DNA of 64,000 nt from an uncultured Planctomycetales bacterium. GTDB lineage: Bacteria; Omnitrophota; Gorgyraeia; Zapsychrales; Fredricksoniimonadaceae. The stretch lies in contig CAZNDZ010000001.1 of the NCBI GenBank assembly GCA_964572155.1, positions 846,290 through 910,289 on the forward strand, written 5' to 3'. Below are positions 2,925 to 50,179 of this stretch, one piece after another. The notes under the pieces were generated by a model, which was given only the letters and a program-made list of their open reading frames with translations, made no database searches and was not told the DNA's origin. Each line of letters opens with the position of its first letter. Position 1 is the stretch's first letter. A program made the position numbers and the translations under genes.

Positions 2925-5384
2925 ATGCGCATTGCCGATTTAGCCAAAGAATTAAAGATCACCGAGAAGCGTGTTTTAGATAAGATCAAAGATCTAAAAC
3001 TACGCACCAAGGATGGTTTAGAAATCACCATTGTCGTCGAAGAAATCGTGCGCGATGCTTTTGCCGATGAAGGCATTGGTTCAAAGGTTGTGGAAGTAGA
3101 AGCGCCAAAGAAAACAGTGAAAAAGGCTGTAGCTAAGAAGACGACCACGGCCAAGAAAACAGCTACGACAAAACCTGCTGCCAAAAAGACAGCGGCTTCT
3201 AAGACAAAGTCTGATTCTAAAAAGAAATCACCGATTGTTGAAAAGATCATTGTGGCTAAGTCAGGGCCATTGCCAAAGGTTGATCCTCCAAAACCAGCGC
3301 CAGCACCTGTTAAGGTTGAAGCACCTAAAGTTGAAGCGCCGAAAGTTGAAGCTCCCAAGGTTGTTGCACCAACTAAGCCGGTGGTGGTTGAAGCAGCAAA
3401 ACCTGAAGCTCCCAAAGTTGATGTTTCTAAAATTGTAGTTCCTGCTGAAGTTGTTGCCGTTGATCCATTAAAGAAGAAGGTGCATGAACCATTTGTTACG
3501 GTAAAGCCATTGGCTAAGAAACGCCGTAAGTTTGAGAATGAGACGAGCAGCACAGGTTCTAGAGATCATAAGCCATCCTCGTCGATTGATACAGTGAATC
3601 AAGCCCAAGCAAGTCAAGGCCCGTTGGTTGATGTGGAATTATCCATTCCAATTTCCGTTAAAGATTTTGCCGCGCGCACTAATCAAAAGTTAAATGTTGT
3701 TTTGAAGCGTTTGCTCGACATGGGTGTTTTTGCCAACATCAATCAAAACCTAGGCGAAGAATTGGTTGGAAAATTAGCGACTGCGTTTGGCATTAATATC
3801 ATTAAGAGTAAGACACAAGAAGAGACCGTTGTTGATTTGCATGCGCAAGAAAAAGATGATCCTTCAACGCTCAAACCACGTGCGCCAGTTGTTACCTTTA
3901 TGGGTCACGTTGATCATGGTAAGACATCGTTACTTGACAGCATTCGTTCAGAACGCGTTGCACATGGTGAGCATGGAGGTATTACCCAGCACATCGGTGC
4001 ATATTCCGTCAGTGTTCCAAGTGGCGGGCGTATCACATTTTTAGATACCCCAGGTCACGAAGCATTTACCGCCATGCGTTCCCGTGGTGCACATATCACC
4101 GACATGGTGGTCTTAGTTGTGGCTGCGGATGAAGGCATTATGCCTCAAACCGAAGAAGCCATTGACCATGCACGTGCAGCCAATGTTCCAATCATTGTTG
4201 CGATGAATAAGATGGATAAAAAGAATGCCAATCCTGATAAAGTGAAGAAACAATTGGCAGATCATGACCTAGCCGCTGAAGATTGGGGTGGTAAGGTTGG
4301 GGTCGTCGGTGTTTCAGCGTTGACAGGGGATGGTATCAATGATTTATTAGATCGTATCTTGCTTGAAGCAGAAGTTTTGGAATTAAAAGCTAACCCTGCT
4401 AAAAAAGCATCGGGTATTGTTATTGAAGCGCATATTAGCAAAGGCCGTGGTGCGATCGCGTCCATGATTGTTCAAAGCGGGACATTGCGTGAAGGCGATG
4501 CCATTGTGGTTGGTCCTTATGCAGGTCGTGTGAAGGCCATGTTGGATGATCATCATCGTCCCATCAAACAAGCTGGCCCATCCATGCCGGTTGAAATCTT
4601 AGGGTTATCCGAAGTTCCTGCAGCGGGTGATATGTTCTATGTTGTGGCAGATGAAAAGACAGCGCGCGAAATTGCCGCAACCCGTCAAGAAAAGATCAAG
4701 AATGAAAAATTGTCTGGTACCGCAAAGGTATCATTAGAAGAGTTATATGCGCAAATTCAAGAAGGTCATATTAAAGAAATGCGCGTGTTAATTAAAGGTG
4801 ATGTGCAAGGTTCTTTGGAAGCGCTCAAAGAATCATTGTCCAAGATCCCAACCAATGAAGTTAAATTGCGTTTCATGCATTTAGGTGTTGGTGATGTTAA
4901 TTCATCCGACGTTATTCTAGCGTTAGCATCGCAAGCCGTCATCATTGCCTTTAACGTTGGCATTGACACCAAAGCCCGTCAAGAACTTGAAAAAACACCG
5001 GTCGATGTGCGTCAGTACCGCATCATTTATGACGCGGTCGATGATGTCCATAAGGCCTTGGAAGGTTTACTCGCACCAAAACTCAAGCGTCATTTCGTCG
5101 GTAAAGTCGAAATTCGCAATGTGTTTAAATTAAGCAAGAGTGGTATTGTGGCAGGGTGTCATGTACAAAAAGGTAAGATCCGCCATAAATCACAAGTTGA
5201 TGTGTTACGCAATGGCGCGGTTGTGTTTACGGGTCATTTAAGCAGCTTGAAACGTTTCAAAGATGACGTTAAAGAAGTCGGTGAAGGTTTCGAATGTGGT
5301 ATCACGGTTGCTAATTTTAATGAGATTCAAGTCGGAGACATTATTGAAGCCTTTGACATAGAATCCATTGCACGTAAATTATAA
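2925..5384 (+). CDS. infB: translation initiation factor IF-2
   Basis: GTPase G1-G4 motifs (GHVDHGKTSLLD, DTPGHEAF, NKMD), low-complexity Lys/Ala/Pro-rich N-terminal region, C-terminal IF2 domains. Confidence 0.92.
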   Translation: MRIADLAKELKITEKRVLDKIKDLKLRTKDGLEITIVVEEIVRDAFADEGIGSKVVEVEAPKKTVKKAVAKKTTTAKKTATTKPAAKKTAASKTKSDSKKKSPIVEKIIVAKSGPLPKVDPPKPAPAPVKVEAPKVEAPKVEAPKVVAPTKPVVVEAAKPEAPKVDVSKIVVPAEVVAVDPLKKKVHEPFVTVKPLAKKRRKFENETSSTGSRDHKPSSSIDTVNQAQASQGPLVDVELSIPISVKDFAARTNQKLNVVLKRLLDMGVFANINQNLGEELVGKLATAFGINIIKSKTQEETVVDLHAQEKDDPSTLKPRAPVVTFMGHVDHGKTSLLDSIRSERVAHGEHGGITQHIGAYSVSVPSGGRITFLDTPGHEAFTAMRSRGAHITDMVVLVVAADEGIMPQTEEAIDHARAANVPIIVAMNKMDKKNANPDKVKKQLADHDLAAEDWGGKVGVVGVSALTGDGINDLLDRILLEAEVLELKANPAKKASGIVIEAHISKGRGAIASMIVQSGTLREGDAIVVGPYAGRVKAMLDDHHRPIKQAGPSMPVEILGLSEVPAAGDMFYVVADEKTAREIAATRQEKIKNEKLSGTAKVSLEELYAQIQEGHIKEMRVLIKGDVQGSLEALKESLSKIPTNEVKLRFMHLGVGDVNSSDVILALASQAVIIAFNVGIDTKARQELEKTPVDVRQYRIIYDAVDDVHKALEGLLAPKLKRHFVGKVEIRNVFKLSKSGIVAGCHVQKGKIRHKSQVDVLRNGAVVFTGHLSSLKRFKDDVKEVGEGFECGITVANFNEIQVGDIIEAFDIESIARKL
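3315..3374 (+). repeat. 4 x 15-nt tandem repeat (gttgaagcNccNaaa) encoding (V)EAPK repeats in IF-2 N-terminal linker
   Basis: Direct reading: gttgaagcacctaaa / gttgaagcgccgaaa / gttgaagctcccaag / gttgttgcaccaact. Confidence 0.6.
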
Positions 5385-10326: not shown

Positions 10327-13300
10327 ATGTTTAAGAAGCTTTTAGCCCTATTTTTATGTGTATGCATGTGTCCAATCTCTCAGGTACGTGCACAGCCTGT
10401 GGTCTTGCCGGCACTTGGGACGATGGTCAATTTAAGCCCATCCGTTAATCCTTCTGTATTAAAAGGGATTAAAGTTCACTTAGACAATCCTTTAAAATTT
10501 GATTTCATTTTAGATCCAGGCAGTAATAGAGGCGCTACATCAGATGATGCAACTAAGCTGATCAGATATTTTTTAGCGGCTTTAACCACACCAGAAAATG
10601 ATTTATGGGTAAATTTAAGTCCGTATGAAAAAGATCGCATTGTTCCAAATAGCTTTGGTCAAACGGAAATGGGACGTGATCTTTTAGCCCAAGATTATCT
10701 ACTTAAACAACTCACGGCATCGTTGGTTTATCCAGAAGGGGATGTTGGTCGAGAATTCTGGAAGAGAATATACCAAGAATCTCCGAATAAAAATATTCCA
10801 GTTAATACGTTTAATAAAGTATGGATTGTTCCAGACAAAGCAACTATCTTTGAAAATGCTCAATCAGGGACGGCTTTTGTTACTGAATCAAGTCTAAAAG
10901 TTTTAACGGAGCAAGATTACCTAGCGGGTGAAAAGAATGCGTCATCTTCTACGTCTAAAGTTGTCCGTGACATTGTCATCCCGCAATTAACAAAAGAAGT
11001 AAATGAAGGAGCAAACTTCGCGTCACTCCGTCAGGTTTATCAAAGTTTGATACTCGCAACGTGGTACAAAAATAAGATCAAAGATAGTATTCTCAATCAA
11101 GTTTATGCGGATAAGAATAAAGTGTCTGGGATTAATATTGCAAATCCAAATGAAAAGCAAAAGATTTATGAACAATATCTACAAGCTTTTAAGAAGGGCG
11201 CCTATAACTATATCAAAGAGGAAAAAGATCCCATCACCCATAAAGTAACGCCACGTAAATATTTCTCCGGTGGTTTTAATTTAGCCATGACGGGAGTTAT
11301 TAAAATTGATAATAGCATGACAGCGACGCTACGAAATCGGTTGATGCAAATTGCGCGATTAATAACGGTCGGTGTGGTATTAACAGTTAGTCCAGTATCA
11401 ACCACATTAGCTCAAACGTTAAAGTTTCCTACACAAGCCAGTGAAGAAATAAAGTTTAAAGATTGGCAAGTACAACGTTTCTTCAGTCAAGCAACGTCAG
11501 GAGATGTTCAGGCTATTTCAAGGCTTACTGTCCTTAGTAAACGAGGGAATGAGGAGGCCATTGAGGCAATTAGACGATTAATTTATGTCGAAAATACACA
11601 GGTGAGTAAAACAGCGTTGGAAGCTTTTTTGGTGACACCATTAGATGGGGTGGAGCATGAGGTAAAAATTGTTCGCGATGCGATGCGTTTACAACATAAA
11701 GAGGCTAAAGATGCATTATCTCGATTGGTTAAAGCGGGAAATATTGAAGCATCGCAATATTTAATTTTTAATACAGAAATTAAGGATCCTGTTCGAGAAC
11801 AGGCATTTAAGAATTTATTATCTGTATTAACATCAAAGAATGCAAAGACTGTTGAATGGAGAGGTCTAGTTGATGCATTATTAAGATTTTATTCAAATGA
11901 ACCAAACAATGAAACATTGCGTTTAATACTTGAGAACTTAGCACATGAAGGTGATCTTTATAGCACTCTTGTAATAATCAAAAGCAAGTTGATCAGAATA
12001 GATGTAAATAAATTGGCTTTACATGTAATGGATTGGAATGGTGGTGACTCTGTCCTTCTTGATTATTATCAAACTGACCCTTCCGAGAATACGGTAAAGG
12101 CAATCATCAATTACTTATTCTCAACTAAACAAACTTTTCAGAATCTTTTAATTATTTTGAGCGATTTTAATAAAACCAAGGAAATCTTAGAATTGCCAGA
12201 ATATAAAGATAGAGTTCCTGAAAATCCTCGAGTTATTGTTTTACTTGGAGCGTTGGGTCATGAAAAATCATTTGAATTTGCCAAAGAAAATCAACCTGAC
12301 GAACTTAGTCGACTCTATTACTACCGTTTAGAGCTAACGGCAAGAAAAGGTGATGGAGAGGCATTAGATCGACTAGAAGAATTAGCTAGCGATGAAGAAG
12401 AGGCAGACAAAGATGCGTTAGCCATATTAGCGTATTTATCACAACGCAATGATGTGTCAGCAGAAGTAAAAGGGCGCATTAACAATTTTATTGATGACCA
12501 TTTTAAATTATTTGTTCCTATTTTTACTAAGGAGAATTGGCAAGATTATGCTAAAGATCCCAAACATAAGGCCAACATTCAAACACTATTTGAAGATTTA
12601 GAAACCAACCCAAATAGGTTGCTTGCTTTAGAATGGGCTGGTCTTTTGAAGAAAGAGCATGTAGCTCGGCATCCTTTTTCTAAAGAAATATTTGATTCAA
12701 TGCTAAGGAATTGGCCAGATATGCTGAAGATTTATTTTAAGCATAGTGATGACATTCACCCTGTTTTTTCTGTATTAACACAGAAGTGGCCACAGACGGC
12801 AATGTCAAATATTCTGCAACGTGAGCGGTCTGAACTTCAACAGGAGCTCTTGAAGCGTTTAAAAGATAATAATAATTTGGGTGCAATGGCTAATCTTTTT
12901 AAGACGGAAGAAGGAAAGTTGGCTTTTTTATTGCAGGCCTTAAAAGCAGAAAATCCGCAAGCATTGCCATTGCTTAAAAGCTTTGTGGAAGAAAAGCCTG
13001 ATAGAATAGAAACACTATACCACGTTTTTTCGACAGGTCTGGTCGGAACAAGTGTCGATCAATATTTTATACTAAATCCTCAATTAGAAAAAATATTATC
13101 AGGCGTGGACGTAAAGAATTTTAGATTCATCCGTCCTTTTGGCAATTTAGATAGAGAAGAAAGTGATCTGATCTTCATGGGTAATCGAAGCGTGCTTGAA
13201 TATGTATTAAAGGATGCCATTAATTCTAATGATATTGCTAACAAGCTTGTCGATATAGGTCCCCATGTTCCTGAGTCTTTGCTTAATTGGCTTAAGAATA

Positions 13301-14499
13301 TGGACATCACTCCGTATGCTAAAAATAGTGCCCTGCTTCGGATGTTCTTTTTAGTGGGAAATGCTCAAGCAACTAAGCTTATTCAAGACGGCGTATCCAA
13401 ACAAAATAATGATATCTTTGCGCCAGTTAATGTTTTGAATTTGACTGGGTTTGGAGATCCAATGTTTAAATCGCTTAGTTCAGACGCACAGGCATATTTG
13501 GATAAATTACGTAAAGACGGCATGGGTGATTTTAAATCGAATTTACGTAAGTCTGACACTCATCAAAGTAATCATATTTTATTAAAGTTATACCTAGCGG
13601 TTTTAGTAAATATGCAGGAACGTTTTCATCTTTTTGATTTTGAAACCTTTAAGAAAATTTCTACACAAATGATCGGAAGAATGACCCTAACCGTTGATTT
13701 GAATAATGCTAATTCGGGTTTTGAGTTTGGGTATCGTTTAATCTTAAATCTTGAAAGTATTGATGAAATGCTATTTGTTACTGGGCATGAGGTAGCACAC
13801 AATTTATTGTTTGCGATGACTAAAGATAAGATTGACGGCATCAAAGGTGATCCAAACAAGATTTTGCAGTATGGATCCATTCACGAGTATTTTGCAGATA
13901 TGGTGGGGTTTGCTTTGGTCAAAGATACCAAAGCCATAGACAAGATGATGCAACGTAATTTCTTATGTGAATTTTGTGCGGGCTTAAAGACAAAAGAGGA
14001 TTGGAAGGATCCGATGTCTAATGAAAATACAAGAGAAGTGCACTACATTCCTCGTTACAGCAGAGGGGCTTTCTTGTTAATGGCAAAGAATGCTGGCATC
14101 GAACCTGCTAAATTCTTAGCTGCTCAATTTACTGAGAATCAAAACCCAATTCTAGCTTATACCGGCACGTATGAAGATTTTTACCATTATTTCTTTTATA
14201 CATTGGCCTTAGGTCTGAAAGTTAATTATGAATATGATCCAACCCTTAATATTCCCTCTAATATTGAAAAGATGTTATCGCTGGCTAAAAAGAACGCTGA
14301 TAGCGCTCAATTAGGATTAAGTAACACAGGGGGGATTGATTTAAATTCCACGAATCTTAATCTTCAAAATGCTGGCTCTGCCATTAAATTTAATATTGAT
14401 TCTGCAATGTTAAAGCAATTACAAAATGCGGCTGGTTTTACGCCTACCATTACTAGCATGAAGCCGACGCAGGACTTATTACAATTTCTAGGAATATAA
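10327..14499 (+). CDS. giant secreted protein, family paralog 1 (1390 aa): signal peptide, conserved N-module, hydrophobic linker, HEAT-like helical repeats, HExxH zincin-like region, conserved C-tail
   Basis: Uninterrupted 4.17-kb ORF; signal peptide MFKKLLALFLCVCMCPISQVRAQ; HEVAH…SIHEYFAD at 13786-13898; collinear with 17431..21630; N-module and C-tail shared with 32917..34902 and 46994..50179. Confidence 0.8.
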   Translation: MFKKLLALFLCVCMCPISQVRAQPVVLPALGTMVNLSPSVNPSVLKGIKVHLDNPLKFDFILDPGSNRGATSDDATKLIRYFLAALTTPENDLWVNLSPYEKDRIVPNSFGQTEMGRDLLAQDYLLKQLTASLVYPEGDVGREFWKRIYQESPNKNIPVNTFNKVWIVPDKATIFENAQSGTAFVTESSLKVLTEQDYLAGEKNASSSTSKVVRDIVIPQLTKEVNEGANFASLRQVYQSLILATWYKNKIKDSILNQVYADKNKVSGINIANPNEKQKIYEQYLQAFKKGAYNYIKEEKDPITHKVTPRKYFSGGFNLAMTGVIKIDNSMTATLRNRLMQIARLITVGVVLTVSPVSTTLAQTLKFPTQASEEIKFKDWQVQRFFSQATSGDVQAISRLTVLSKRGNEEAIEAIRRLIYVENTQVSKTALEAFLVTPLDGVEHEVKIVRDAMRLQHKEAKDALSRLVKAGNIEASQYLIFNTEIKDPVREQAFKNLLSVLTSKNAKTVEWRGLVDALLRFYSNEPNNETLRLILENLAHEGDLYSTLVIIKSKLIRIDVNKLALHVMDWNGGDSVLLDYYQTDPSENTVKAIINYLFSTKQTFQNLLIILSDFNKTKEILELPEYKDRVPENPRVIVLLGALGHEKSFEFAKENQPDELSRLYYYRLELTARKGDGEALDRLEELASDEEEADKDALAILAYLSQRNDVSAEVKGRINNFIDDHFKLFVPIFTKENWQDYAKDPKHKANIQTLFEDLETNPNRLLALEWAGLLKKEHVARHPFSKEIFDSMLRNWPDMLKIYFKHSDDIHPVFSVLTQKWPQTAMSNILQRERSELQQELLKRLKDNNNLGAMANLFKTEEGKLAFLLQALKAENPQALPLLKSFVEEKPDRIETLYHVFSTGLVGTSVDQYFILNPQLEKILSGVDVKNFRFIRPFGNLDREESDLIFMGNRSVLEYVLKDAINSNDIANKLVDIGPHVPESLLNWLKNMDITPYAKNSALLRMFFLVGNAQATKLIQDGVSKQNNDIFAPVNVLNLTGFGDPMFKSLSSDAQAYLDKLRKDGMGDFKSNLRKSDTHQSNHILLKLYLAVLVNMQERFHLFDFETFKKISTQMIGRMTLTVDLNNANSGFEFGYRLILNLESIDEMLFVTGHEVAHNLLFAMTKDKIDGIKGDPNKILQYGSIHEYFADMVGFALVKDTKAIDKMMQRNFLCEFCAGLKTKEDWKDPMSNENTREVHYIPRYSRGAFLLMAKNAGIEPAKFLAAQFTENQNPILAYTGTYEDFYHYFFYTLALGLKVNYEYDPTLNIPSNIEKMLSLAKKNADSAQLGLSNTGGIDLNSTNLNLQNAGSAIKFNIDSAMLKQLQNAAGFTPTITSMKPTQDLLQFLGI

Positions 14500-17379: not shown

Positions 17380-17430
17380 GAATCATTTTATAAATTTGCT
17401 GATATATAGATAATATGTTATCTTTTGTCC

Positions 17431-20400
17431 ATGTTTATTAAGATTATTGCTATAGCTTTAAGTGTTTCATTACTCCCATTTACTCCTGTAAAGGCAGTTG
17501 AAATTGTGTTGCCAAAGCCGGGAGCCATGTTGGCTTTGACGCCTTCTTTTAGCCCAGCTGTATTAAAGGGTATCAAAGTACATGTGAACGATCCTTTAAG
17601 ATTGGAGTTTATAGTTGCCCAAGGAAACGATGATAATCTTGCCCAAGAAGAATCTTCAAAACTTGTAAAATATTTTTTAGCTTCTCTTGCCACACCAGAA
17701 AAAGATATGTGGGTTAATTTAAGCCCATATGAAAAAGATCGTATTGTGCCAAATAGTTTTGGTCAAACCGAAATGGGACGTGATCTTTTAGCCCAAGATT
17801 ATATTCTCAAACAAATAACGGCGTCGTTGGTTTATCCTGAGAATGAAATAGGTAAAGAATTCTGGCGTCGTGTTTATCAAGAAGCTTCAAGAAAATCAGT
17901 CGACATTTCCATACCAATAAATACATTCAATAAAGTTTGGATCATGCCAGATAAAGCAGTAATTCAAGAAAATGTAAAGACAGGAACGGCCTATATTAAG
18001 GAAGCAACCTTAAAAGTGATGTTGGAGGTAGATTATTTATCCACTAAGAAACATGTTGCGGCATCAACTGATTCAGCAACTGAGATCGTAAGGCAGATGG
18101 TGATTCCTCAATTGACTAAGGAAGTCAATGAAGGCGCCCATTTTGCAGGCCTTCGTCAAATGTATCATGCGTTTGTATTGGCGGCATGGTATAAGAGAAA
18201 AATACAAAACAGTGTTTTATCTGGTGTTTATGTCGATCAGAATAAGACCCAAGGCGTAACTATTTCTAATCCTTTTGCCAAACAAGAAATTTATGAGCAA
18301 TATTTGCAGGCTTTCAAGAAGGGGGTTTTCAATTATATTAAAGAAGAAAGCGATCCTGTCACGCATCAATTGATACCAAAGAAATATTTTTCAGGCGGGT
18401 TAACTCTAAATATTTCACAGCGTTTGGAAATTAATAAGGCCATGACTGCTGCTGAAGCTGTAGGCATTATTAAACAAGGTTTAAAGTTGTTAACCATTTC
18501 AGTTGCCCTGACGGGTGCTTTTACGAAGCCTGCTCTTGCTCAAGTAGAGGTAGAGGATCGGCCAGTTTTTGCAAGCAGCAAAGATGAACGTGATTATGAG
18601 TTAGTGATGCGTTTGCAAGAACGTGGATTAAATGGAGAGCTGGCTGCCATTAAACGATTAGAGGTGTTATATAGGGATAATAATATTAGTTTTGCCTTAA
18701 AAGCTTTGGGCAAGATTGCATTCTCAGGCGATGCTCAGAATTCGAAGTCAGCACTAGAGCTTTTTCTAAAATCATCTTTAAGCTCATTGAAAGATTTTGA
18801 AACCCTTCGATCTGCTATCCAATTAGCTCACCCTGAATCAAAAGATGCGTTAATTAAGTTTGTGGAAAGTGGTAATTTAGATGCGTCATTTTATTTGCTG
18901 CGGACCAGTCTTACAGGTGATGTTAAAACAAAAGCTATGCAAAATATTTTAGCTTTTTTAAAGCGACCAGATCGTTTTACTTCTGAAACGCAATGGACAA
19001 CTCTAAGAATAGTTTTATTGGAAGAATTTGGACGAGATAAATCAAATGCACTGATAAAAGAAATTTTACAAGAATTGGCATATCTAGGCACAGCTTCTGT
19101 TTCGTCTCAAGTTATTGAGAGTGGTTTGGTAGAGTTAGATTCTAAAAGGTTGGTTGATAGTGCGAAACGTATGGGGTCCGGGGATATTTCGCTAATGAAA
19201 TATTACCAACATTTTCCAAGTAAAGAATTGTTAAGGAGCATCATTCGGTTTTTATTTGAAGCAGATAGGCAAACATTGAATCTTAGGGGCATATTAGCTG
19301 ATTATAACATCACAAAAGAAATTTTAGAATCGCCTGAATTTAAGGATCGAGAGCCTCCTGAAGGAAATGGCTTTCATAGAGATTCTATATTGATTTTAGC
19401 GGCAGCGGGTCATAGAAAATCTCATGAGTTGGCAGAACAGCATTACTCGGCAGGACTCGTAAAATACATTTATGATCGGTTATATTTAACTGCTTTAAAA
19501 GGAGAATTAGATTCCGTTAGTAAATTAGAAGAGATGGCCCAAGATGATGACAATGCTGCCATTGAGATAATCTATAACATATCACGCAATAAGAGTGCTT
19601 CTGACTTGATTAAACAAAGATTTAAAAGCTATATTGAGGACAACGTTGACCTTTTTAAAGATTTATTTGATAAAGGAACTTGGCAAGAATTTGGCAAAGA
19701 TCCCAAACATAAAGCGATTGTTGATGGGTTATATGAAGATGTGAAAACTGATCCCAAGGTGCTTGTCATTTTATATTGGCTTGGACTTTTAACAAAAGAG
19801 CATATCGCGTACCATCCTTTCTCTCAAGATGTTATTGATGCATTGGGTTCAAGATTAATAGATGGATTAGAATTATATTTTTCTTACGATGAGAACCCAA
19901 ACGAGCTTTTTAGGATTCTAGCTAAAAAATGGGGTGGGTATGTTGTAAGTAATTTAATGCAACCCTTTAGAAATGTCGATAAATTGGAATTAAAAAAGGT
20001 ATTTTTAAAGAGTTTGTCGCGTATGAATATTCTAGAGGCTATGGGTTATTTAAAGGATGATAAAGAGAAGCTTCAGTTGATCGTATATGCTTTGCAAGAA
20101 AACATTCCTGAAGCTTGGGGCATTCTTAAAGAATATGTTCAACATAATCATAATAGGGCGGAGTATTTATATGGGATGTATGTTTCAGGTTTTATATCTT
20201 TTGGAGATGAAGAGAATAAATTTGTAAGGGGCAATATTCAAATCAAAGATATATTGGCAAATGTGGATATGTCGACATTCAAAACAAAGGATTTCTTTCA
20301 AGGATTAGATCCAGAAATATCGCAGTTTATTCGTATTGGAAATCTAAGCATTCTTGATGTGGCATTAAAGCTGGCAATCACAAGACCTAGGGTGGCTGAG

Positions 20401-21630
20401 GATTTACAGCAAATGTCAGATGATTTTCCTAAAAATTTAAGAGATTATATCAAGGATATGAAAGATATTTCTCCGTACAAAAAGAGTGAAAGTTTAATGC
20501 GTATGTTTGTTCTGCTTGGGAACAAACCGGCTATTAGTGAGCTCTTAAAAGGTTTTCGAGTTGAAGAACCTTCGCTAATTAATACTGTTTATTTGGAATC
20601 ATATAATGATCCACGTATTCAAGCGTTCAAGAATTTATCAAGGACAACTTTGGCTGAGGTAAGAGCTCAAAATATCAGTGCCTTTAAAGAGGGCATTAGA
20701 AATATGAGTCCAAAGGAAGGTAATGAGTATATGCTGAAGCTGTATTTAAGTGCGCTTTATGATATTCAGGATCAATTCAACTTATTGGATTTTGAAATAT
20801 TTAAAGAAATTGCGGTGAAAATGATTGCTAGGATCTCTTTGTCGGTAACGTTGAATAATGCGAATTCTGGTTTTGAGTTTGGTTTTAACTTGTTGTTGCG
20901 TTTAAATAGCATTGATGAGCTGCTGTTTGTTTTGCATCACGAGCTTGCCCATAATGTTTTAGATGCAAAATTGTTAGATAGGAAAATCGATCGTTTTAAG
21001 CTTGATCAAAAGAAAAAAGTTCAAGTTGGTTCAATTCATGAGTATTTTTCTGACATTGTTGCATATGCGGCTAGTCAGGACGACAAGAAAGTGGCAAGGT
21101 TATTTGATGATAATTTCTTGTGTGATTATTGTAGGGCTGTGAACTTTTCAGATTTTAAACTTTTGCAAGAAGAAGTTCATGTTATCCCACGTACTTCATT
21201 AGCTTTATTTCGTTTCAAGGCAAAAGCAAAAGGTATTGATACGGCAAAATTCTTTGCTGAGTTATTTAAAAACCATCGTGAGAAAATTCTAAACTACTCG
21301 GGTGATTACACTAATTTCAATGATTATTTTATATACACTCTGGCTCTTCAATTAGGGGTTACATACACATATGATCCAAGCATAAATTTATCCGAGAACT
21401 TGGACAGGTTGTTAGATTTGCCAGTTCCCAATAAAGCCATGGCGGCTATTGATGGGGGGATTGACTTTAATACAGAGAATCTGAACTTAGTAAATCCTTC
21501 AGCAGGCGCTCAAATACATTTCAATGTGTCTGCTGATTTGCTTAAACAGTACAATAATGTTGCAGGTTTTATACCTACCATTAAGGCTGTGCAGCCACTA
21601 GTAGATCTTAATTCTTTTCTGAACTTATAA
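17431..21630 (+). CDS. giant secreted protein, family paralog 2 (about 1400 aa), full-length collinear with paralog 1
   Basis: 4.2-kb ORF; signal peptide MFIKIIAIALSVSLLPFTPVKA; N-module; HHELAHN…SIHEYFSD at 20938-21054; conserved tail …GGIDFNTENLNL…IPTIKAVQP…; start moved to ATG 17431 (track TTG 17425). Confidence 0.8.
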   Translation: MFIKIIAIALSVSLLPFTPVKAVEIVLPKPGAMLALTPSFSPAVLKGIKVHVNDPLRLEFIVAQGNDDNLAQEESSKLVKYFLASLATPEKDMWVNLSPYEKDRIVPNSFGQTEMGRDLLAQDYILKQITASLVYPENEIGKEFWRRVYQEASRKSVDISIPINTFNKVWIMPDKAVIQENVKTGTAYIKEATLKVMLEVDYLSTKKHVAASTDSATEIVRQMVIPQLTKEVNEGAHFAGLRQMYHAFVLAAWYKRKIQNSVLSGVYVDQNKTQGVTISNPFAKQEIYEQYLQAFKKGVFNYIKEESDPVTHQLIPKKYFSGGLTLNISQRLEINKAMTAAEAVGIIKQGLKLLTISVALTGAFTKPALAQVEVEDRPVFASSKDERDYELVMRLQERGLNGELAAIKRLEVLYRDNNISFALKALGKIAFSGDAQNSKSALELFLKSSLSSLKDFETLRSAIQLAHPESKDALIKFVESGNLDASFYLLRTSLTGDVKTKAMQNILAFLKRPDRFTSETQWTTLRIVLLEEFGRDKSNALIKEILQELAYLGTASVSSQVIESGLVELDSKRLVDSAKRMGSGDISLMKYYQHFPSKELLRSIIRFLFEADRQTLNLRGILADYNITKEILESPEFKDREPPEGNGFHRDSILILAAAGHRKSHELAEQHYSAGLVKYIYDRLYLTALKGELDSVSKLEEMAQDDDNAAIEIIYNISRNKSASDLIKQRFKSYIEDNVDLFKDLFDKGTWQEFGKDPKHKAIVDGLYEDVKTDPKVLVILYWLGLLTKEHIAYHPFSQDVIDALGSRLIDGLELYFSYDENPNELFRILAKKWGGYVVSNLMQPFRNVDKLELKKVFLKSLSRMNILEAMGYLKDDKEKLQLIVYALQENIPEAWGILKEYVQHNHNRAEYLYGMYVSGFISFGDEENKFVRGNIQIKDILANVDMSTFKTKDFFQGLDPEISQFIRIGNLSILDVALKLAITRPRVAEDLQQMSDDFPKNLRDYIKDMKDISPYKKSESLMRMFVLLGNKPAISELLKGFRVEEPSLINTVYLESYNDPRIQAFKNLSRTTLAEVRAQNISAFKEGIRNMSPKEGNEYMLKLYLSALYDIQDQFNLLDFEIFKEIAVKMIARISLSVTLNNANSGFEFGFNLLLRLNSIDELLFVLHHELAHNVLDAKLLDRKIDRFKLDQKKKVQVGSIHEYFSDIVAYAASQDDKKVARLFDDNFLCDYCRAVNFSDFKLLQEEVHVIPRTSLALFRFKAKAKGIDTAKFFAELFKNHREKILNYSGDYTNFNDYFIYTLALQLGVTYTYDPSINLSENLDRLLDLPVPNKAMAAIDGGIDFNTENLNLVNPSAGAQIHFNVSADLLKQYNNVAGFIPTIKAVQPLVDLNSFLNL

Positions 21631-32820: not shown

Positions 32821-32916
32821 AGTTAAGTTTTAAGGTTGCATTTTGCGACCATAAAGCATTGTTCATAAGCGGTTAATAAATTGGTAAACCTATACTCTAT
32901 AGGGTACACTATATTT

Positions 32917-34902
32917 ATGACGCCACATCGATGGTTTGCCAACATAATGCTTGTGGTATTTTTTCAGGCGATGGTTTTGCCTGTGCCTTTGACACATGCC
33001 CAAGAAGTCGTATTACCTGCCCCTGGTGTGATGGTTGATTTAAGCCCTAGTTTCGTTCCGCCACATTTAGCAGGAATTACCGTTTACCCTAATAGTCCGC
33101 TTAAATTTGATTTCATCATTCAACGTGGTGACACGCCATTATCTGACGAAGAAAAACAAGCAGAATACAAAAAGCTTATCAAATATTTCTTAGCATCGTT
33201 GGCTGTCCCTGATGATAATCAATGGGTTAACTTATCCCCATATGAAAAAGACCGCATTGTTGGTCCTGATTTTGCCAATACAAAAATGGGTAGAGATTTG
33301 CTGGCCCAAGACTACATTCTAAAACAAATAACTTCATCGCTCATTTACCCTGAGAAAGATTTAGGTAAAGGTTTTTGGGATAAGGTATATGCGCAAGCCT
33401 ATAAACAATTTGGTAACACCAACATTCCCGTTAACACTTTTAATAAAGTATGGATTGTCCCAGACAGTGCCGTCATTTTTGAAAAAGGCAATAGTGCCTA
33501 CGTTCTTAAGAATCATTTAAAAGTGATGCTTGAACAAGACTATGTCGCCACCGAACAAAATGCGGTGAGCGCGAATGGCAATAAAGTTGTGACCTTAAAT
33601 GCGTCGACGTCCAACGTCATGCGCGATGTCATCATTCCCGTCTTAGAAAAAGAAGTTAATGAAGGTAAAAATTTTGCGAATTTACGACAAGTTTATAGCG
33701 GGATGTTGCTTGCCGCATGGTATAAGCGGGTACTTAAAGAATCATTCTTAGCAAAAGTGTACGCGGATAAATCAAAATTAAAAGGTATCGATCAAGACCC
33801 TAAAGCAAATCAGGAAATTTATGCACGATATCTTCAAGCGACCAAAAAAGGTGTGTATAACTTTATTAAAGAAGATGTAGATAAGTATACCCAACAAATT
33901 ATTCCAAGAAAGTATTTCTCCGGTGGGGCTGAAGGGTATAAGGATTTTGGAAAGGTGCAGCGGATTAATGACCGAGCTCAAGCCTCTGCTAATCCTTCCT
34001 ATAGACAAATACTAGAGGGCGTTAATGTTGATAATGTAGACATATTATTTGATGATATGTCTCTGCCTGTAGATAATCGATCTGCAAATGTTGTGGATGT
34101 TTTTTCAGGTAATGTCAGTACTTCTGTTAGAGGTGTAGATTTCCCTTTAAAAGTGGTTCCTGAATCTACTGAGCACATAGACATTTTTAGTGGTGCTGTT
34201 GAAAAATCGGTTGGACATGTACAAATTCCTTCGAATGTAATCCAAGACAAAGAACAACAGGATGCACGTTTAGCTAGGGAAATAAGAATGGATCCTTATT
34301 TTTCTGATTTGGATGATATGGGTAAGAATATGGGAATAAATATGCGACGTTTGTACAAATACGACGGGACAACAAATAAAAACACTGTTGATGAAATGAT
34401 AGAAATCTTAGAACGTATTGTAGACGAAGTAGAATTTAAAGGGAGTAAAGATCAAATTGAAATATACCAAGAAGTTGATGAGTTAAGTTCTAAATTTGGA
34501 GAAGGTCGACAACAGAAGTATTTAGGTCTTAAGTTTAAGAAGTTTAGTGTGCATTTTAATACTGAAGCAAATTTAAAAGCATTAGGCGAAAAGACTAAGC
34601 TAATGTTACAAAAGATTATTATGGAGAGAGCAAAATCAAGGCTTGATTATGCGATGATTGGTATACAGGGTGCTACAACTCAAGCAGCTAATAACGTTGA
34701 TGCAGACCAAGCCGCTAATCCCGTGGGTGGTATTGACCTTAATGCTTCTAAATTGAACATGCAAATTAAGCGGGATGGGAATGGGGTTGTTTTGCCTTTG
34801 GCTCAGCAGAATTGGGAAGGTATTGTTATTAATGGTTTGACGCCTGTGATCCTTGAAATTAAACCTGCGGTTGGTTTATCCATTCTAGATATACAAAATT
34901 AA
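32917..34902 (+). CDS. secreted protein, family paralog 3 (about 660 aa): signal peptide, conserved N-module, short divergent middle, conserved C-tail (subtype …IKRDGNGVVLPL…)
   Basis: Signal peptide MTPHRWFANIMLVVFFQAMVLPVPLTHAQ; N-module …WVNLSPYEKDRIV…MGRDLLAQDYILKQITSSLIYPE…NTFNKVWIVPD…RKYFSGG; tail …GGIDLNASKLNMQ…PVILEIKP…; start moved to ATG 32917. Confidence 0.75.
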   Translation: MTPHRWFANIMLVVFFQAMVLPVPLTHAQEVVLPAPGVMVDLSPSFVPPHLAGITVYPNSPLKFDFIIQRGDTPLSDEEKQAEYKKLIKYFLASLAVPDDNQWVNLSPYEKDRIVGPDFANTKMGRDLLAQDYILKQITSSLIYPEKDLGKGFWDKVYAQAYKQFGNTNIPVNTFNKVWIVPDSAVIFEKGNSAYVLKNHLKVMLEQDYVATEQNAVSANGNKVVTLNASTSNVMRDVIIPVLEKEVNEGKNFANLRQVYSGMLLAAWYKRVLKESFLAKVYADKSKLKGIDQDPKANQEIYARYLQATKKGVYNFIKEDVDKYTQQIIPRKYFSGGAEGYKDFGKVQRINDRAQASANPSYRQILEGVNVDNVDILFDDMSLPVDNRSANVVDVFSGNVSTSVRGVDFPLKVVPESTEHIDIFSGAVEKSVGHVQIPSNVIQDKEQQDARLAREIRMDPYFSDLDDMGKNMGINMRRLYKYDGTTNKNTVDEMIEILERIVDEVEFKGSKDQIEIYQEVDELSSKFGEGRQQKYLGLKFKKFSVHFNTEANLKALGEKTKLMLQKIIMERAKSRLDYAMIGIQGATTQAANNVDADQAANPVGGIDLNASKLNMQIKRDGNGVVLPLAQQNWEGIVINGLTPVILEIKPAVGLSILDIQN

Positions 34903-40245: not shown

Positions 40246-41129
40246 TGGTCTACGAACCTCCGAGCATATACGGCATTATCGGTAATCCTTTGACGCATAG
40301 CTTGTCGCCGCTCATGCACAATGCGGCATTTAAAGCGCTGGATGTTAATGCGGTTTATAAACTTTTTCCGTTAGAAGACGCTGAAGAGCTTAAATTGTTT
40401 ATGGAAGATTTAAAGGAAGAGAATAATCCGATCTTTGGGCTCAATGTCACCGTCCCTTATAAAGAAGCGGTGATGCCCTATGTCGATACGGTTGATCCAT
40501 TTGCCAAATTAGTCGGGGCTGTTAATACGTTGGCCATTACCAATGAGCGCAAGATCATTGGCCTTAATACTGACGGGCCTGGCTTTTTAAGTCATTTACA
40601 GGAATTAAAGTTTGATCCAGAAGGCAAACGCATTGCCATTTTAGGTGCCGGTGGCACAACGCGCGCCATTTTAACGGTGTTATGCATGATTCATCCTCGA
40701 CCAGAGAGTATTAAGATTTTTAACCGCACGCCGGATAAAGCGGTGAGATTGGTCGAAGAATTGGGCACTCGCATGGATGCTAGTTTAATTGAGGTGGTTG
40801 GCAATACGGAAGATTTGAATATTGAAATTGCGGATTTGCTTATCAATACCACATCGGTTGGCTTAAAGGGAGAGACGTCGCTGTTGATCGATCCTCAAAG
40901 CATTCATCCTGATATGTTGGTTTACGATGTCATTTATAATCCCGCACAAACGTCATTGCTCAAAGCAGCGAAAGCTCAAGGTGCCACGGCTGCCAATGGC
41001 TTGGGGATGTTGTATTATCAAGGTGTCTTGGCATTCACGCATTGGGCGGGCATGGACATCGATCCAAAATATAAAAAAATCATGCGCCGCGCGCTCGAAG
41101 AAGGGTTAGATAAACAACTCCATGGTTGA
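40245..41129 (+). CDS. aroE: shikimate dehydrogenase
   Basis: …YGIIGNPLTHSLSPLMHNAAF…, …ILGAGGTTRAI…. Confidence 0.85.
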   Translation: MVYEPPSIYGIIGNPLTHSLSPLMHNAAFKALDVNAVYKLFPLEDAEELKLFMEDLKEENNPIFGLNVTVPYKEAVMPYVDTVDPFAKLVGAVNTLAITNERKIIGLNTDGPGFLSHLQELKFDPEGKRIAILGAGGTTRAILTVLCMIHPRPESIKIFNRTPDKAVRLVEELGTRMDASLIEVVGNTEDLNIEIADLLINTTSVGLKGETSLLIDPQSIHPDMLVYDVIYNPAQTSLLKAAKAQGATAANGLGMLYYQGVLAFTHWAGMDIDPKYKKIMRRALEEGLDKQLHG

Positions 41130-46993: not shown

Positions 46994-49900
46994 ATGAAAA
47001 GCCCATTTGCCAAAATTGCCAATTTTACTGTTTTGCTTACATTTTTTGTGAGCACGCTTTCTATTTCTAAGCTTCAGGCTGGGGAAGTCGTTGTGCCCAT
47101 TATGCCAAAGCCGGGGACCATGGTTAGTTTAAGTCCAATCTATAGCCCTGCGTTTTTAAATGGGGTTGTGATCCATGAAGACAATGCGCTTCAATTTGAT
47201 TTCTTGATCCACAAGGGTGATGGCAATTTAGACCTTCCTCAAAAAAATGAAGAATACACCAAGCTCGTCAAATATTTCTTAGCATCCTTAACTATCCCTG
47301 ACAGCGACCAATGGGTTAACCTTTCACCCTACGAACATGATCGCATCATCAAAGATAATTTCGGCAAAACAGAAATGGGCCGCGATTTATTAGCCCAAGA
47401 TTATTTGCTCAAACAAATCACCTCGTCATTGATGTACCCTGAAAGCGGTTTAGGTAAAGAATTCTGGAACAAGGTTTACGAACGCGCCGCCCAAGAATTT
47501 GGTAACGTACAGGTTCCTGTTAACACCTTCAATAAAGTTTGGATTGTCCCAGATGAAGCGCTAGTCTACGAAAGCGGCAATACCGCCTACGTCGTTAAAA
47601 GCCATTTGAAAGTCATGTTGGAAGAAGATTATTTATCTTTAGAAAAACATTCTGCTGTAACCGAAGAGCCAAACAAGGTGCATGCGATCTCATCAAAAAT
47701 GATCCGAGAAATCATCTTGCCTGCCCTAGAAAAAGAAGTCAACGAAGGCAAAAACTTCGCCCAATTACGCCAAATCTTCTCAGGCATGGTGCTAGCCACG
47801 TGGTATAAAAAAGCGTTAAAAGAATCCATGCTCGGCAAAATCTACGCCGACAAAGCTAAAGTTATCGGTGTCAATCAAGACCCAACCAACAACGAAAAAA
47901 TCTACCAACAATACCTAGTCGCCTTCAAAAAAGGCGTCTACAACTACATCAAAGAAGACGTCGACAAATACACCAAACAAATCATCCCAAGAAAATATTT
48001 TTCAGGTGGGTTTGAGAAGAAGGATATCAAAGTTAAAACTACAACAGTTTCATCACAAGCCATGGCTTCAGTGGTTGATCCTCAAACAGATTTAGCAATG
48101 ATCAGATTAGATGCTCCTGATGCGGCGATGGCTGGTGATGGGAATGCTAAAATTAATGGCGGAGATTATGCTTTTCGAAAAGTTGTATTCGAAGAGCTTT
48201 CTGATTTAGGAAAAGATTTTTATGGTGTTGCAGGTGATGTGATTGATGTTGAGGCTAGGGTGGTTGAAGAGGGGGCTAAGCCCAGTATTAATGAGCCTAT
48301 TCTTGTTCAAAAACTTTTGGCATTAGAAGAGAAAGCAAATAAAAGCAAAGTCCCATTAAGCGTAAATGCTCAAAAAGCAATAGGTTTATACGGACAAATT
48401 CAAGCATTAGCTAAAACCAATTTGCCACCAAGCGATATTAAAGCGTTAAGTCCAGTTGCTAAAGAATTGAGTGCAAAGTTAGACGGAGAACCAAAGAAAA
48501 TTTTAGATCGAGTTTTGAGAATTTTAGGTCTTGATTCGGCGATGAATGCAAATCTGACACCGTCAGATCGACTTTATAATGATTTGAAGATTTCCTATAA
48601 GGGCATAGAGGTTGGGAAGACTTTACCTTTGACTGATGAGACGTTGAAACGAATTATAGAAACGGTGAAACCACTGAGCCCTACTCAAAAAGGTATGTTG
48701 GCTGTAGAGATGATGCGGGTTTACGCCGGAAATGAACAGAAAATTATTTCCGCGCTAGGTTTAGATAAAGCGATGTTGGGTGATTTTTTTAAGAAATTTA
48801 AGGATCGATTGATATATGGTGGATTGGATGACACTCCTGAATTAGATACTGGCGATAAGATTGGCGATAAGAAGGGAGCTATAAATGAAGTGGCTAAAGC
48901 ATATGGCTCTTCGTTTCCTTCGCAAGTTGAAGTAGCAAAGGTTATTAGATACGATCCAAAGATGCCAGTTTCACCTGAGTTAAATAAAACTTTTAAGGCT
49001 TTCGAGATGGTCGGAGGTCTAGAGTTTTGGCAAAAATTTGAAGATAGGATTAATAGGAAAGAATTACCTAATCCATTAATGATCGATGGTTTGGTTGGTC
49101 GGGAAGTAGATTTATTAGTAAAAGGTGCAGATGGTAAAGAAGAGATAATTACTCGTAAGATTTTAGGATATCAACCTAAGTCACTTAAAGAAGCTGATGG
49201 GTATATAATCAATGTTCAAGAAATAGTTTCAAAGAATGGTGAGATTGTTAGAAGGTCTGGGGAAATTGGAGCAGCAACGATTTTGCAGATTGTTGATAAG
49301 GGTGGAGCTATTAAAACCTCTACTATAAACAACTCCGTAAAGATATTAGTTGCTAAAACTCTTCTTGATCCCAACAATTCCGAAGGTGTTTGGGAAAAAG
49401 ATGACCCAACGACCGGTGTCCTTCGATTAAAGCAAGGTGTGGATATTAAGAGTGTTATAAAACAATTGCCTCTAGAATCAAATAATTTAGATGCACTAAA
49501 AACTCTAATTGATGCAGTAGAACCTAAAATAATCTATGAGATAAAATTTGGGCAAGTTATTGATATATCTTCGTTAGGACCACAGCCTAAGATTGTAAAC
49601 AGAAGTGCATCCAATAATGATGAACTACGATTGAATGATAAGGTTCTATTAACTTCAAATAGGACGGTGGCGCCACCTATAGCAACGCCAGATAAACCTT
49701 TATTAGATTATTTGCCGTTATTATCAAAAGGTTGGGATTATTCCATTAAATTTGTTGTAGATGGTCATGTTGAGAATGGACAAAAATATATGGGGCGAGA
49801 AGGGGATGTTTTTATTTTTGAGCCTATGCCTGGTATTCAAATGAGATATGCTTCTTCAAGAATTAAAGAAATTAAAGATGTTGATGGAAATCTTGTGTGG

Positions 49901-50179
49901 CCAGTAAGAGGTTTGGTTGATTCTAATAAGGCAATGATCTCTAAAGGAAAAGATTTTAACAAGGGTGGTATTGATTTGAATGGGGCTAATTTGAATTTTG
50001 AGATTAAGAGGGATGGGAAGGGTGTTCCTTTGCCTTTGCCTCAGCAGGATATGGAGTTGTTGAATAAGATTCAGGGGTTTGTGCCGACTATCATAGAGAT
50101 TAAGCCGGTTACTACTTTGCCTATGTTCAGCCAATTGCACGAAAATTCTACGTCTCAAAATCTCGCCAGTGCGTCTTAA
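46994..50179 (+). CDS. giant secreted protein, family paralog 4 (1061 aa): signal peptide, conserved N-module, long divergent middle, conserved C-tail
   Basis: Signal peptide MKSPFAKIANFTVLLTFFVSTLSISKLQAGE; N-module …WVNLSPYEHDRII…MGRDLLAQDYLLKQITSSLMYPE…NTFNKVWIVPD…RKYFSGG; tail …GGIDLNGANLNFEIKRDGKGVPLPLPQQ…VPTIIEIKP…. Confidence 0.75.
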   Translation: MKSPFAKIANFTVLLTFFVSTLSISKLQAGEVVVPIMPKPGTMVSLSPIYSPAFLNGVVIHEDNALQFDFLIHKGDGNLDLPQKNEEYTKLVKYFLASLTIPDSDQWVNLSPYEHDRIIKDNFGKTEMGRDLLAQDYLLKQITSSLMYPESGLGKEFWNKVYERAAQEFGNVQVPVNTFNKVWIVPDEALVYESGNTAYVVKSHLKVMLEEDYLSLEKHSAVTEEPNKVHAISSKMIREIILPALEKEVNEGKNFAQLRQIFSGMVLATWYKKALKESMLGKIYADKAKVIGVNQDPTNNEKIYQQYLVAFKKGVYNYIKEDVDKYTKQIIPRKYFSGGFEKKDIKVKTTTVSSQAMASVVDPQTDLAMIRLDAPDAAMAGDGNAKINGGDYAFRKVVFEELSDLGKDFYGVAGDVIDVEARVVEEGAKPSINEPILVQKLLALEEKANKSKVPLSVNAQKAIGLYGQIQALAKTNLPPSDIKALSPVAKELSAKLDGEPKKILDRVLRILGLDSAMNANLTPSDRLYNDLKISYKGIEVGKTLPLTDETLKRIIETVKPLSPTQKGMLAVEMMRVYAGNEQKIISALGLDKAMLGDFFKKFKDRLIYGGLDDTPELDTGDKIGDKKGAINEVAKAYGSSFPSQVEVAKVIRYDPKMPVSPELNKTFKAFEMVGGLEFWQKFEDRINRKELPNPLMIDGLVGREVDLLVKGADGKEEIITRKILGYQPKSLKEADGYIINVQEIVSKNGEIVRRSGEIGAATILQIVDKGGAIKTSTINNSVKILVAKTLLDPNNSEGVWEKDDPTTGVLRLKQGVDIKSVIKQLPLESNNLDALKTLIDAVEPKIIYEIKFGQVIDISSLGPQPKIVNRSASNNDELRLNDKVLLTSNRTVAPPIATPDKPLLDYLPLLSKGWDYSIKFVVDGHVENGQKYMGREGDVFIFEPMPGIQMRYASSRIKEIKDVDGNLVWPVRGLVDSNKAMISKGKDFNKGGIDLNGANLNFEIKRDGKGVPLPLPQQDMELLNKIQGFVPTIIEIKPVTTLPMFSQLHENSTSQNLASAS

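Follow-up and report, generated by a model that had tools for sequence, protein, structure and literature searches.

Why should four large, apparently exported proteins encoded by one stretch of bacterial DNA all end in the same short module? The stretch, hereafter called the window, is the whole 64-kb segment analyzed here (64,000 nt; positions 846,290 to 910,289 of contig CAZNDZ010000001.1, assembly GCA_964572155.1), which is labeled as an uncultured Planctomycetales bacterium and placed by GTDB in the Omnitrophota. The element in question is a C-terminal tail of about 55 residues that starts with GGID(L/F)N and closes four paralogous genes, numbered 1 to 4 along the window. A sequence-only reading of this DNA had proposed the tail as a novel sorting or anchoring signal. 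We found that the tail marks a very large modular exported family, new to description, whose named matches are mostly Omnitrophota. A general sorting tag is not favored; the key finding is that the tail keeps to proteins with one N-terminal domain (N-domain).

The C-Terminal Tail of the Four Paralogs

The 3′ end of paralog 1 (window 14323-14499) translates to NTGGIDLNSTNLNLQNAGSAIKFNIDSAMLKQLQNAAGFTPTITSMKPTQDLLQFLGI*. A six-frame scan of the 64 kb for GG[IVL]D[LFIM] gave exactly four matches, all on the + strand (nt 14329, 21454, 34726, and 49964), which lie 56–71 codons upstream of the stops of large open reading frames (ORFs). The alignment of the four tails contains 13 invariant columns (GGID, N, LN, G, G..P.I, P, and L), and the common tail of about 55 residues that the sequence-only reading had described on all four paralogs is hence confirmed. 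Its NLN triplet held in part: LN is present in all four tails, and the first N is not invariant because paralog 3 has KLN. The tail occurs as two subtypes. The majority subtype reads LQIKRDGxGVPLPLxQQD and is represented by paralogs 3 and 4, which follow the tail consensus GGIDLNxANLNLQIKRDGxGVPLPLxQQDxxQLxxIxGFxPVIIEIKPAxxLPxxSEL. The minority subtype, …QNAGxxIKFxxDxAMLKQLQNAxGFxPxI…, is found in paralogs 1 and 2, and also in P0056, P0086, and L026 263-1471; in this subtype a D.AM motif, discussed below, sits within the tail itself.

The four proteins had been regarded as otherwise divergent, which proved incorrect, since a signal peptide and an N-domain of about 330 residues are also common to all of them. 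The N-domain has about 100 invariant columns across the four paralogs, with the landmarks WVNLSPYE, MGRDLLAQDY, NKVWIVPD, EVNEG, and YFSGG, and is preceded in each by a hydrophobic signal-like segment. All four window genes thus fit one architecture, composed of a signal peptide, the N-domain, a variable middle, and a C-terminal GGID(L/F)N…G(F/L)xPxI…P tail. The DNA identity is 77% over 93 nt between tails 3 and 4, and 62–78% among the N-domains; the paralogs are old copies, not recent repeats.

Size and Distribution of the Family

A tail profile search (alignment A3) covered 1.84 billion proteins, for which counts refer to cluster representatives. It retrieved 5,385 representatives at E ≤ 1e-3, of which 2,678 remained at E ≤ 1e-10, so that other proteins ending in the motif, for which the sequence-only reading had suggested a search, exist in large number. 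Among the matches listed (150; 68 to 2,843 aa), all end at or near the C-terminus, and in the genome loci the profile match stops 0–21 residues, mostly 1–5, before the stop codon. A signal-peptide-like hydrophobic start was present in 141 of 188 relatives. Chance or compositional likeness, or an artefact of gene calling, is excluded by the 13 invariant columns, the 2,678 matches at the stricter threshold, and the conservation in 160 independent loci; nothing was found in its favor, and its probability is negligible.

The organism names given by the source for the protein matches were all Candidatus Omnitrophica or Omnitrophota. The scans of genome and metagenome loci used majority-subtype patterns only, and the loci are biased to that subtype. 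Eighty genome loci were retrieved in this way, up to seven of them in one assembly: 48 are named Omnitrophota or Omnitrophica, 30 belong to third-party annotation (TPA) bins labeled “uncultured Planctomycetales”, one to Ca. Elulimicrobium, and one to a “bacterium”. The Elulimicrobium locus (L080, DYOU01000048.1) is labeled Ca. Elulimicrobium sp., a taxon that NCBI places in the Patescibacteria group. Either the Planctomycetales and Elulimicrobium bins are mislabeled, or the family reaches beyond Omnitrophota. Window paralogs 3 and 4 have 100% identical counterparts among the retrieved proteins, P0090 and P0250, respectively. For these two, and for two more paralogs, P0192 and P0200, the longest contig on record has 1,344,502 bp, and this genome therefore contains at least six members.

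Pairing of the Tail with the N-Terminal Domain

The retrieved proteins of at least 450 aa comprised 167 with both conserved ends, 20 with the tail only, whose N-termini look truncated, and one with the N-domain only, which means that 167 of the 168 N-domain-bearing proteins carry the tail. The same pairing was observed at the DNA level. The 160 genomic and metagenomic loci hold 187 tail-bearing ORFs: an N-domain was present in 120, 39 were cut by the start of the locus, and 28 had the tail only. Thirteen of these 28 adjoin an upstream N-domain ORF across one in-frame stop or frameshift, and most of the others lie near contig starts. Free-standing small tail proteins, as the 57–142-aa matches of the first search might have been, were rejected as fragments; L005 is a nanopore contig on which the N-domain is split over several frames, and L004 is cut by the contig end. 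One conserved end is hardly ever inherited without the other.

Seven family genes in other metagenome-assembled genomes are split between N-domain and tail by one in-frame stop, which was TAG in three, TAA in three, and TGA in one. The first three stops seen were TAG, and programmed TAG read-through was considered; it was discarded on the larger set, which shows no codon preference. The split genes are therefore probably pseudogenes or sequencing errors rather than cases of recoding.

This distribution bears on a rival explanation, which treats the tail as a genuine C-terminal signal for secretion or anchoring, recognized, in the manner of type IX secretion, by an outer-membrane translocon, a sortase, or a protease, and which gives the N-domain a separate job. 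The strong conservation of the tail over thousands of proteins with unrelated cargo speaks for such a signal, as do the Sec signal peptides and a cell with two membranes, which follows from the lipopolysaccharide (LPS) genes in the window (kdtA/lpxK cluster). However, the tail is confined to carriers of one N-domain, unlike every known sorting signal, and this account must explain why it never spread to other proteins. A hydropathy scan showed the tail to be free of hydrophobic segments in the four window proteins and in 177 of 188 relatives; it thus lacks a transmembrane (TM) helix, and it also has no basic cluster, no match to a hidden Markov model, and, when modeled alone, no compact fold. 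The neighbors in 80 loci included no recurrent family, the commonest being generic ones (response regulators, helicases, and ABC ATPases), each in at most 7 of the 80. The apparent co-evolution of tail and N-domain described below also argues against this account, which we consider somewhat unlikely. The strict C-terminal position that the sequence-only reading had expected of a sorting or anchoring signal was observed, but a cognate machinery was not found among the neighbors in the 80 loci. That reading had named a lack of other carriers and of co-varying machinery as evidence against the signal, and within reach of the searches run this is largely the situation found.

Structure Prediction and Coupling of the Two Ends

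In the AF2 model of paralog 3, the N-domain is mostly helical with two hairpins, and no β-barrel is predicted. The tail in the full-length model consists of three strands (aa 617–619, 626–631, and 653–662), and the tail modeled alone gave no compact fold. Pfam and NCBIfam scans of the four full-length paralogs left the conserved ends unmatched even at E ≤ 1, a PDB sequence profile search returned only low-complexity matches to the middle region, and Foldseek gave no significant match to the paralog 3 model. Its non-significant matches included components of ClyA-type α-pore-forming toxins (SmhA, AhlB, MakE, and Cry6Aa; E 0.8–5, probability ≤0.03), which are too weak for use.

These models also bear on an independent, non-covalent binding module, which would tether the protein to an envelope component or to a ligand on a host or prey surface in the manner of SLH, LysM, or dockerin domains. 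The small size, conservation, and terminal position of the tail, its many invariant G, D, N, R, Q, and P residues, and the export of the family are compatible with such a module, and Omnitrophota themselves are presumed to attach to other cells (PMC10066038; bioRxiv 10.1101/2023.11.21.568195). The tail, however, does not fold alone and resembles no known binding domain, and its restriction to N-domain carriers is left unexplained; we regard this module as improbable.

Mean-field direct-coupling analysis (DCA) was performed on 216 concatenated N-domain and tail sequences (Meff 147). The top inter-domain couplings (2.09, 1.98, 1.59, 1.56, and 1.52) ranked 6th to 25th of all pairs and exceeded the maxima of 1.22 and 1.10 that were obtained when the tails were shuffled among the sequences. 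In the largest clade the same pairs gave 2.17, 1.93, 1.76, 1.74, and 1.73, versus shuffled maxima of 1.53 and 1.43. The signal is strongest in a triad of mutually coupled positions, N101 (A/T, in FLASL[AT]IPD), N195 (K/S, where the long hairpin has its tip), and T93 (L/F of G[FL]xP), for which 89 of 283 sequences have the state A-K-L and 132 have T-S-F. This triad was replicated in 67 sequences less than 90% identical to the first set (z 13–14 vs. a maximum of 10.7 for random column pairs); several weaker coupled pairs failed to replicate. These couplings suggest that the tail co-evolves with the N-domain, and a contact between the two is likewise suggested.

A tail-like start was noted straight after YFSGG, the last landmark of the N-domain, in some members: GGFNLAM… in paralog 1 (window 11260-11310), GGLTLNISQRLEINKAM in paralog 2 (window 18385-18444), and ALAMQNGGIDRASVVLNL at aa ~390–410 of P0258, where it scores as a second tail stretch. 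Such starts hint that cargo was inserted into an ancestral continuous …YFSGG-IDLN… sequence.

Variable Cargo and the (D/N)xAM Motif

The middle region between the two ends, here called cargo, spans 32 to 2,184 aa (median 560). Precomputed Pfam matches in it include Response_reg, class I methyltransferases, HD, LMWPc, DnaJ, HATPase_c, cNMP_binding, Metallophos, Peptidase_M3, PrmA, LysM, TPR, HEAT, and WD40. The middles of the window paralogs cannot be aligned, except that of paralog 1 with that of paralog 2; these two contain HEVAH and HELAH, respectively, with a weak match to Peptidase_M48 (E 0.14, below threshold), and may represent a zinc-metalloprotease-like module. An internal hydrophobic segment resembling a Sec/Tat signal peptide was observed in the cargo of 57 of 188 members (~30%), such as NRRQALGLGAAALGAALVPRLALAGA in P0127, and also in P0122, P0129, P0106, P0177, P0258, and paralog 1. 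Because of these segments, the cargo cassettes are suggested to include whole captured pre-proteins.

A motif of four residues, (D/N)xAM, punctuates the linkers in this arrangement. D.AM was observed 375 times versus 19.7 expected, and N.AM 120 times versus 17, which correspond to an 18–19-fold and an about 7-fold enrichment; scrambled controls stayed near 1×. An independent set of genome loci gave 197 motifs versus 11 expected in the family, versus 19 and 18.9 in neighboring genes, and the 42 other window proteins contain one D.AM versus 2.0 expected. The motif clusters 0–70 aa past the N-domain and 0–30 aa before GGID, amid flanks that show no conservation. It lies within 60 aa upstream of half of the internal signal-like segments, versus 9% for random positions. 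A DNA-level signal, such as an internal start with a ribosome-binding site or a recombination site, was rejected, as synonymous positions vary and no purine-rich signal lies upstream; selection on the motif therefore acts at the peptide level. (D/N)xAM is a candidate site of processing or recognition at module boundaries.

The location of the motif also raises the case of a pro-peptide-like tail, cut at the upstream (D/N)xAM and either acting on the cargo as an intramolecular chaperone or inhibitor or being itself released as a peptide. A motif shortly before GGID, within the 0–30 aa given above, was counted in 84 cases among 168 proteins and occurs in paralogs 2, 3, and 4, and its family specificity and selection at the peptide rather than the DNA level are in keeping with a cleavage site. 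Against this, about half of the members have no motif near the tail, and a single chaperone or inhibitor would hardly fit cargo of such variety; we regard this explanation, in which the cleavage is putative, as improbable.

A Possible Carrier Function of the Two Ends

The reading that we tentatively prefer, with confidence a little short of even, is that tail and N-domain act jointly, probably through strand addition (in cis or in trans), and that the pair is a carrier for cargo with (D/N)xAM at the module boundaries. The chain would comprise a Sec-type signal peptide, the N-domain, one or more hypervariable cargo modules separated by (D/N)xAM, and the tail. The three predicted tail strands (GGIDLN, LNLQIKR, and G(F/L)xPVIIEIKP) would dock onto the N-domain of their own or a neighboring chain, and in this way the conserved ends would make up a single carrier unit, by which interchangeable cargo is held, presented, or delivered outside the cytoplasm.

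Several points weigh against this carrier reading. The docking of the tail on the N-domain and the role in display or delivery are inferences. The tail has a moderate pLDDT of 66–86 in both models, Meff in the coupling analysis is only about 147, and the strongest coupling is a two-state signature, which could be partly phylogenetic. A tree-based co-change test was discarded, as it called many pairs “significant” since changes pile up on long branches. The invariable placement of the tail at the extreme C-terminus is what would be expected of a secretion signal. Lastly, the 428-aa ORF at L031 1162-2445 has a divergent minority-type tail and four (D/N)xAM, without an N-domain or a signal peptide; it begins right at the end of the preceding family gene, and may be the sole plausible N-domain-less member seen.

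A further-reaching proposal, which we hold to be unlikely, is that the proteins are secreted polyproteins. The split carrier would bracket cassettes, many of them captured pre-proteins that keep their Sec/Tat signals, and a protease, either dedicated or contained in the proteins themselves, would release the modules at (D/N)xAM, so that the products would constitute an effector repertoire of host-dependent nanobacteria.

Features and Genomic Setting of the Window

The coordinates of the four genes, their parts, and the motifs are collected in Table 1. The four genes amount to 13.6 kb, or 21% of the window, whose GC content is 41.6%. The other window ORFs of at least 150 aa number 42, all but one on the + strand, and those scanned are housekeeping genes. 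The paralogs are inserted singly, with short intergenic gaps, between queA and tgt, rnhB and rpsB, pfk and a YhcG-like gene, and a xerC-like gene and the kdtA/lpxK LPS cluster. The window also encodes a prepilin peptidase (41122-42117). The N-terminal region of the IF-2 gene (window 3315-3438) contains a 15-nt periodic repeat of (V/P)EAPK-like units (repeat family D8), which looks like an ordinary low-complexity linker. Outside the window, at locus L166 (8256-9696 and 10001-12286), P0200 is located directly 3′ of genes for an ECF sigma factor, a zf-HC2 anti-sigma factor, and an LTXXQ (CpxP/Spy-like) protein, and may be linked to envelope-stress regulation.

Table 1. Positions of the family genes, their parts, and (D/N)xAM motifs in the window, and of stop-split family genes at other loci.
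Feature	Position (nt)	Strand	Remarks
Paralog 1 ORF	10327-14499	+	1390 aa
Paralog 1 signal peptide (aa 1-23) and N-domain	10327..11331	+	ends in YFSGG, nt 11260-11274
Paralog 1 cargo	11332..14328	+	hydrophobic signal-peptide-like segment aa 339-363 (nt 11341-11415); HEVAH nt 13786-13800
Paralog 1 C-terminal tail	14329..14496	+	GGIDLN…GFTPTI…KP…FLGI; minority subtype (QNAGxxIKF…AMLKQLQNA)
Paralog 2 ORF	17425-21630	+	1401 aa
Paralog 2 signal peptide and N-domain	17425..18468	+	
Paralog 2 cargo	18469..21453	+	homologous to paralog 1 cargo; HELAH nt 20938-20952
Paralog 2 NKAM	18433-18444, 21430-21441	+	flanking cargo
Paralog 2 C-terminal tail	21454..21627	+	GGIDFN…GFIPTI…QP; minority subtype, as paralog 1
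Paralog 3 ORF	32881-34902	+	673 aa; public gene call P0090 (661 aa) starts at 32917
Paralog 3 signal peptide and N-domain	32917..33933	+	AF2 pLDDT up to 95
Paralog 3 cargo	33934..34725	+	DYAM nt 34645-34656, 27 aa before tail
Paralog 3 C-terminal tail	34726..34899	+	GGIDLN…IKRDGNGVVLPL…GLTPVILEIKP; majority subtype
Paralog 4 ORF	46994-50179	+	1061 aa
Paralog 4 signal peptide and N-domain	47000..48061	+	
Paralog 4 cargo	48062..49963	+	five (D/N)xAM motifs, last 13 aa before tail
Paralog 4 (D/N)xAM	48089-48100, 48119-48130, 48533-48544, 48764-48775, 49925-49936	+	
Paralog 4 C-terminal tail	49964..50176	+	GGIDLN…IKRDGKGVPLPL…GFVPTIIEIKP and 20-aa extension; majority subtype
Other window (D/N)xAM	11278-11289, 14398-14409		
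Split genes at other loci	L053 7515-7517, L066 3156-3158, L082 1402-1404, L094, L099, L115, L121		single in-frame stop

Comparison with Known Systems

The family passed none of the tests run for membership in four types of system, namely the C-terminal domain (CTD) of the type IX secretion system (T9SS), sortase-type signals, type I substrates, and autotransporters. The T9SS CTD (Por_Secre_tail, TIGR04183/PF18962) resembles the tail in being a strand-rich module at the extreme C-terminus of proteins with a Sec signal peptide and highly variable functional domains. It is, however, a 70–100-aa β-sandwich found on Bacteroidota cargo with unrelated N-terminal architectures, whereas the present tail has about 55 aa and three strands, does not fold alone, and occurs in another phylum paired with one N-domain. 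The four window paralogs gave no TIGR04183/PF18962 match even at E ≤ 1, and no T9SS component (SprA, PorU/V, and others) was present among the 42 annotated window genes. The LPXTG, PEP-CTERM, GlyGly-CTERM, and MYXO-CTERM signals (cf. bioRxiv 10.1101/2023.06.07.544157) are likewise short C-terminal signatures on many paralogs per genome. Signals of the sortase, exosortase, and rhombosortase types combine a motif with a TM helix and a terminal basic cluster, whereas the tail has neither helix nor cluster. The NCBIfam scan matched no CTERM model (PEP-CTERM, GlyGly-CTERM, and others), and no sortase-like neighbor was detected in the 80 loci. The statement of the sequence-only reading that the motif matches none of the T9SS CTD, PEP-CTERM, and LPXTG-type signals known to it is thus upheld by the Pfam and NCBIfam scans for the T9SS CTD and CTERM types.

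Type I (RTX-type) substrates lack a Sec signal and have GGxGxDxUx nonapeptide repeats, whereas all four paralogs have a signal-peptide-like start, one GGID per protein, and no match to HemolysinCabind or another repeat model. Autotransporters, inverse autotransporters, and two-partner secretion also employ a conserved terminal module that serves a variable Sec-exported passenger; autotransporters use for this a 12–16-strand β-barrel (PF03797/PF11924), in contrast to the present proteins, for which no barrel is predicted, no Pfam match was obtained, and both ends are conserved. The PE/PPE, LXG, and Rhs/CdiA-type families are similar in forming big paralog families with one conserved domain and interchangeable modules, including cytoplasm-type ones. 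Their variable part is C-terminal, whereas the cargo here is internal and closed by a conserved C-terminal cap. To our knowledge, the (D/N)xAM punctuation has no counterpart in polymorphic secreted families. Donor-strand complementation (chaperone-usher and type V pili), in which a terminal strand, incomplete by itself, completes a partner sheet in cis or in trans, serves as an analogy for the proposed mechanism only, as the proteins are unrelated in sequence and fold and no gene for an usher or a chaperone was found.

Within the same phylum, the giant proteins called Archaeovorins resemble the family in combining a signal peptide or TM segment with cytoplasm-type domains (HATPase_c, receiver, methyltransferase, and TPR). 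They exceed 10,000 aa, and their post-translational cleavage has been proposed (bioRxiv 10.1101/2023.11.21.568195; 10.64898/2026.06.07.730766); these papers mention neither the N-domain, the GGID tail, nor (D/N)xAM. No mention of “GGIDLN” or of the family was found in the searchable literature, including papers on Omnitrophota. We regard the present proteins as an expanded modular secreted family with conserved carrier or trafficking ends, made of domains without a detectable relative. Its unusual traits are the conserved C-terminal cap that is coupled to an N-terminal domain and the (D/N)xAM punctuation.

Significance for the Omnitrophota

The Omnitrophota are widespread, uncultured, and ultra-small bacteria, which are believed either to need other cells or to prey on them. 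The family described here has thousands of diverged members, which place a very wide range of enzymatic and signaling modules behind a signal peptide, and neither its conserved ends nor the (D/N)xAM motif appears in Pfam, NCBIfam, the PDB, or the searchable literature. Should the two ends be a carrier and the motif a processing site, the family would be the main exported-effector repertoire of the phylum. The motif would then provide a simple rule to predict module boundaries, which could be extended to the giant proteins, whose cleavage points are an acknowledged gap, and the N-domain together with the tail would serve as a handle for finding the export or assembly machinery.

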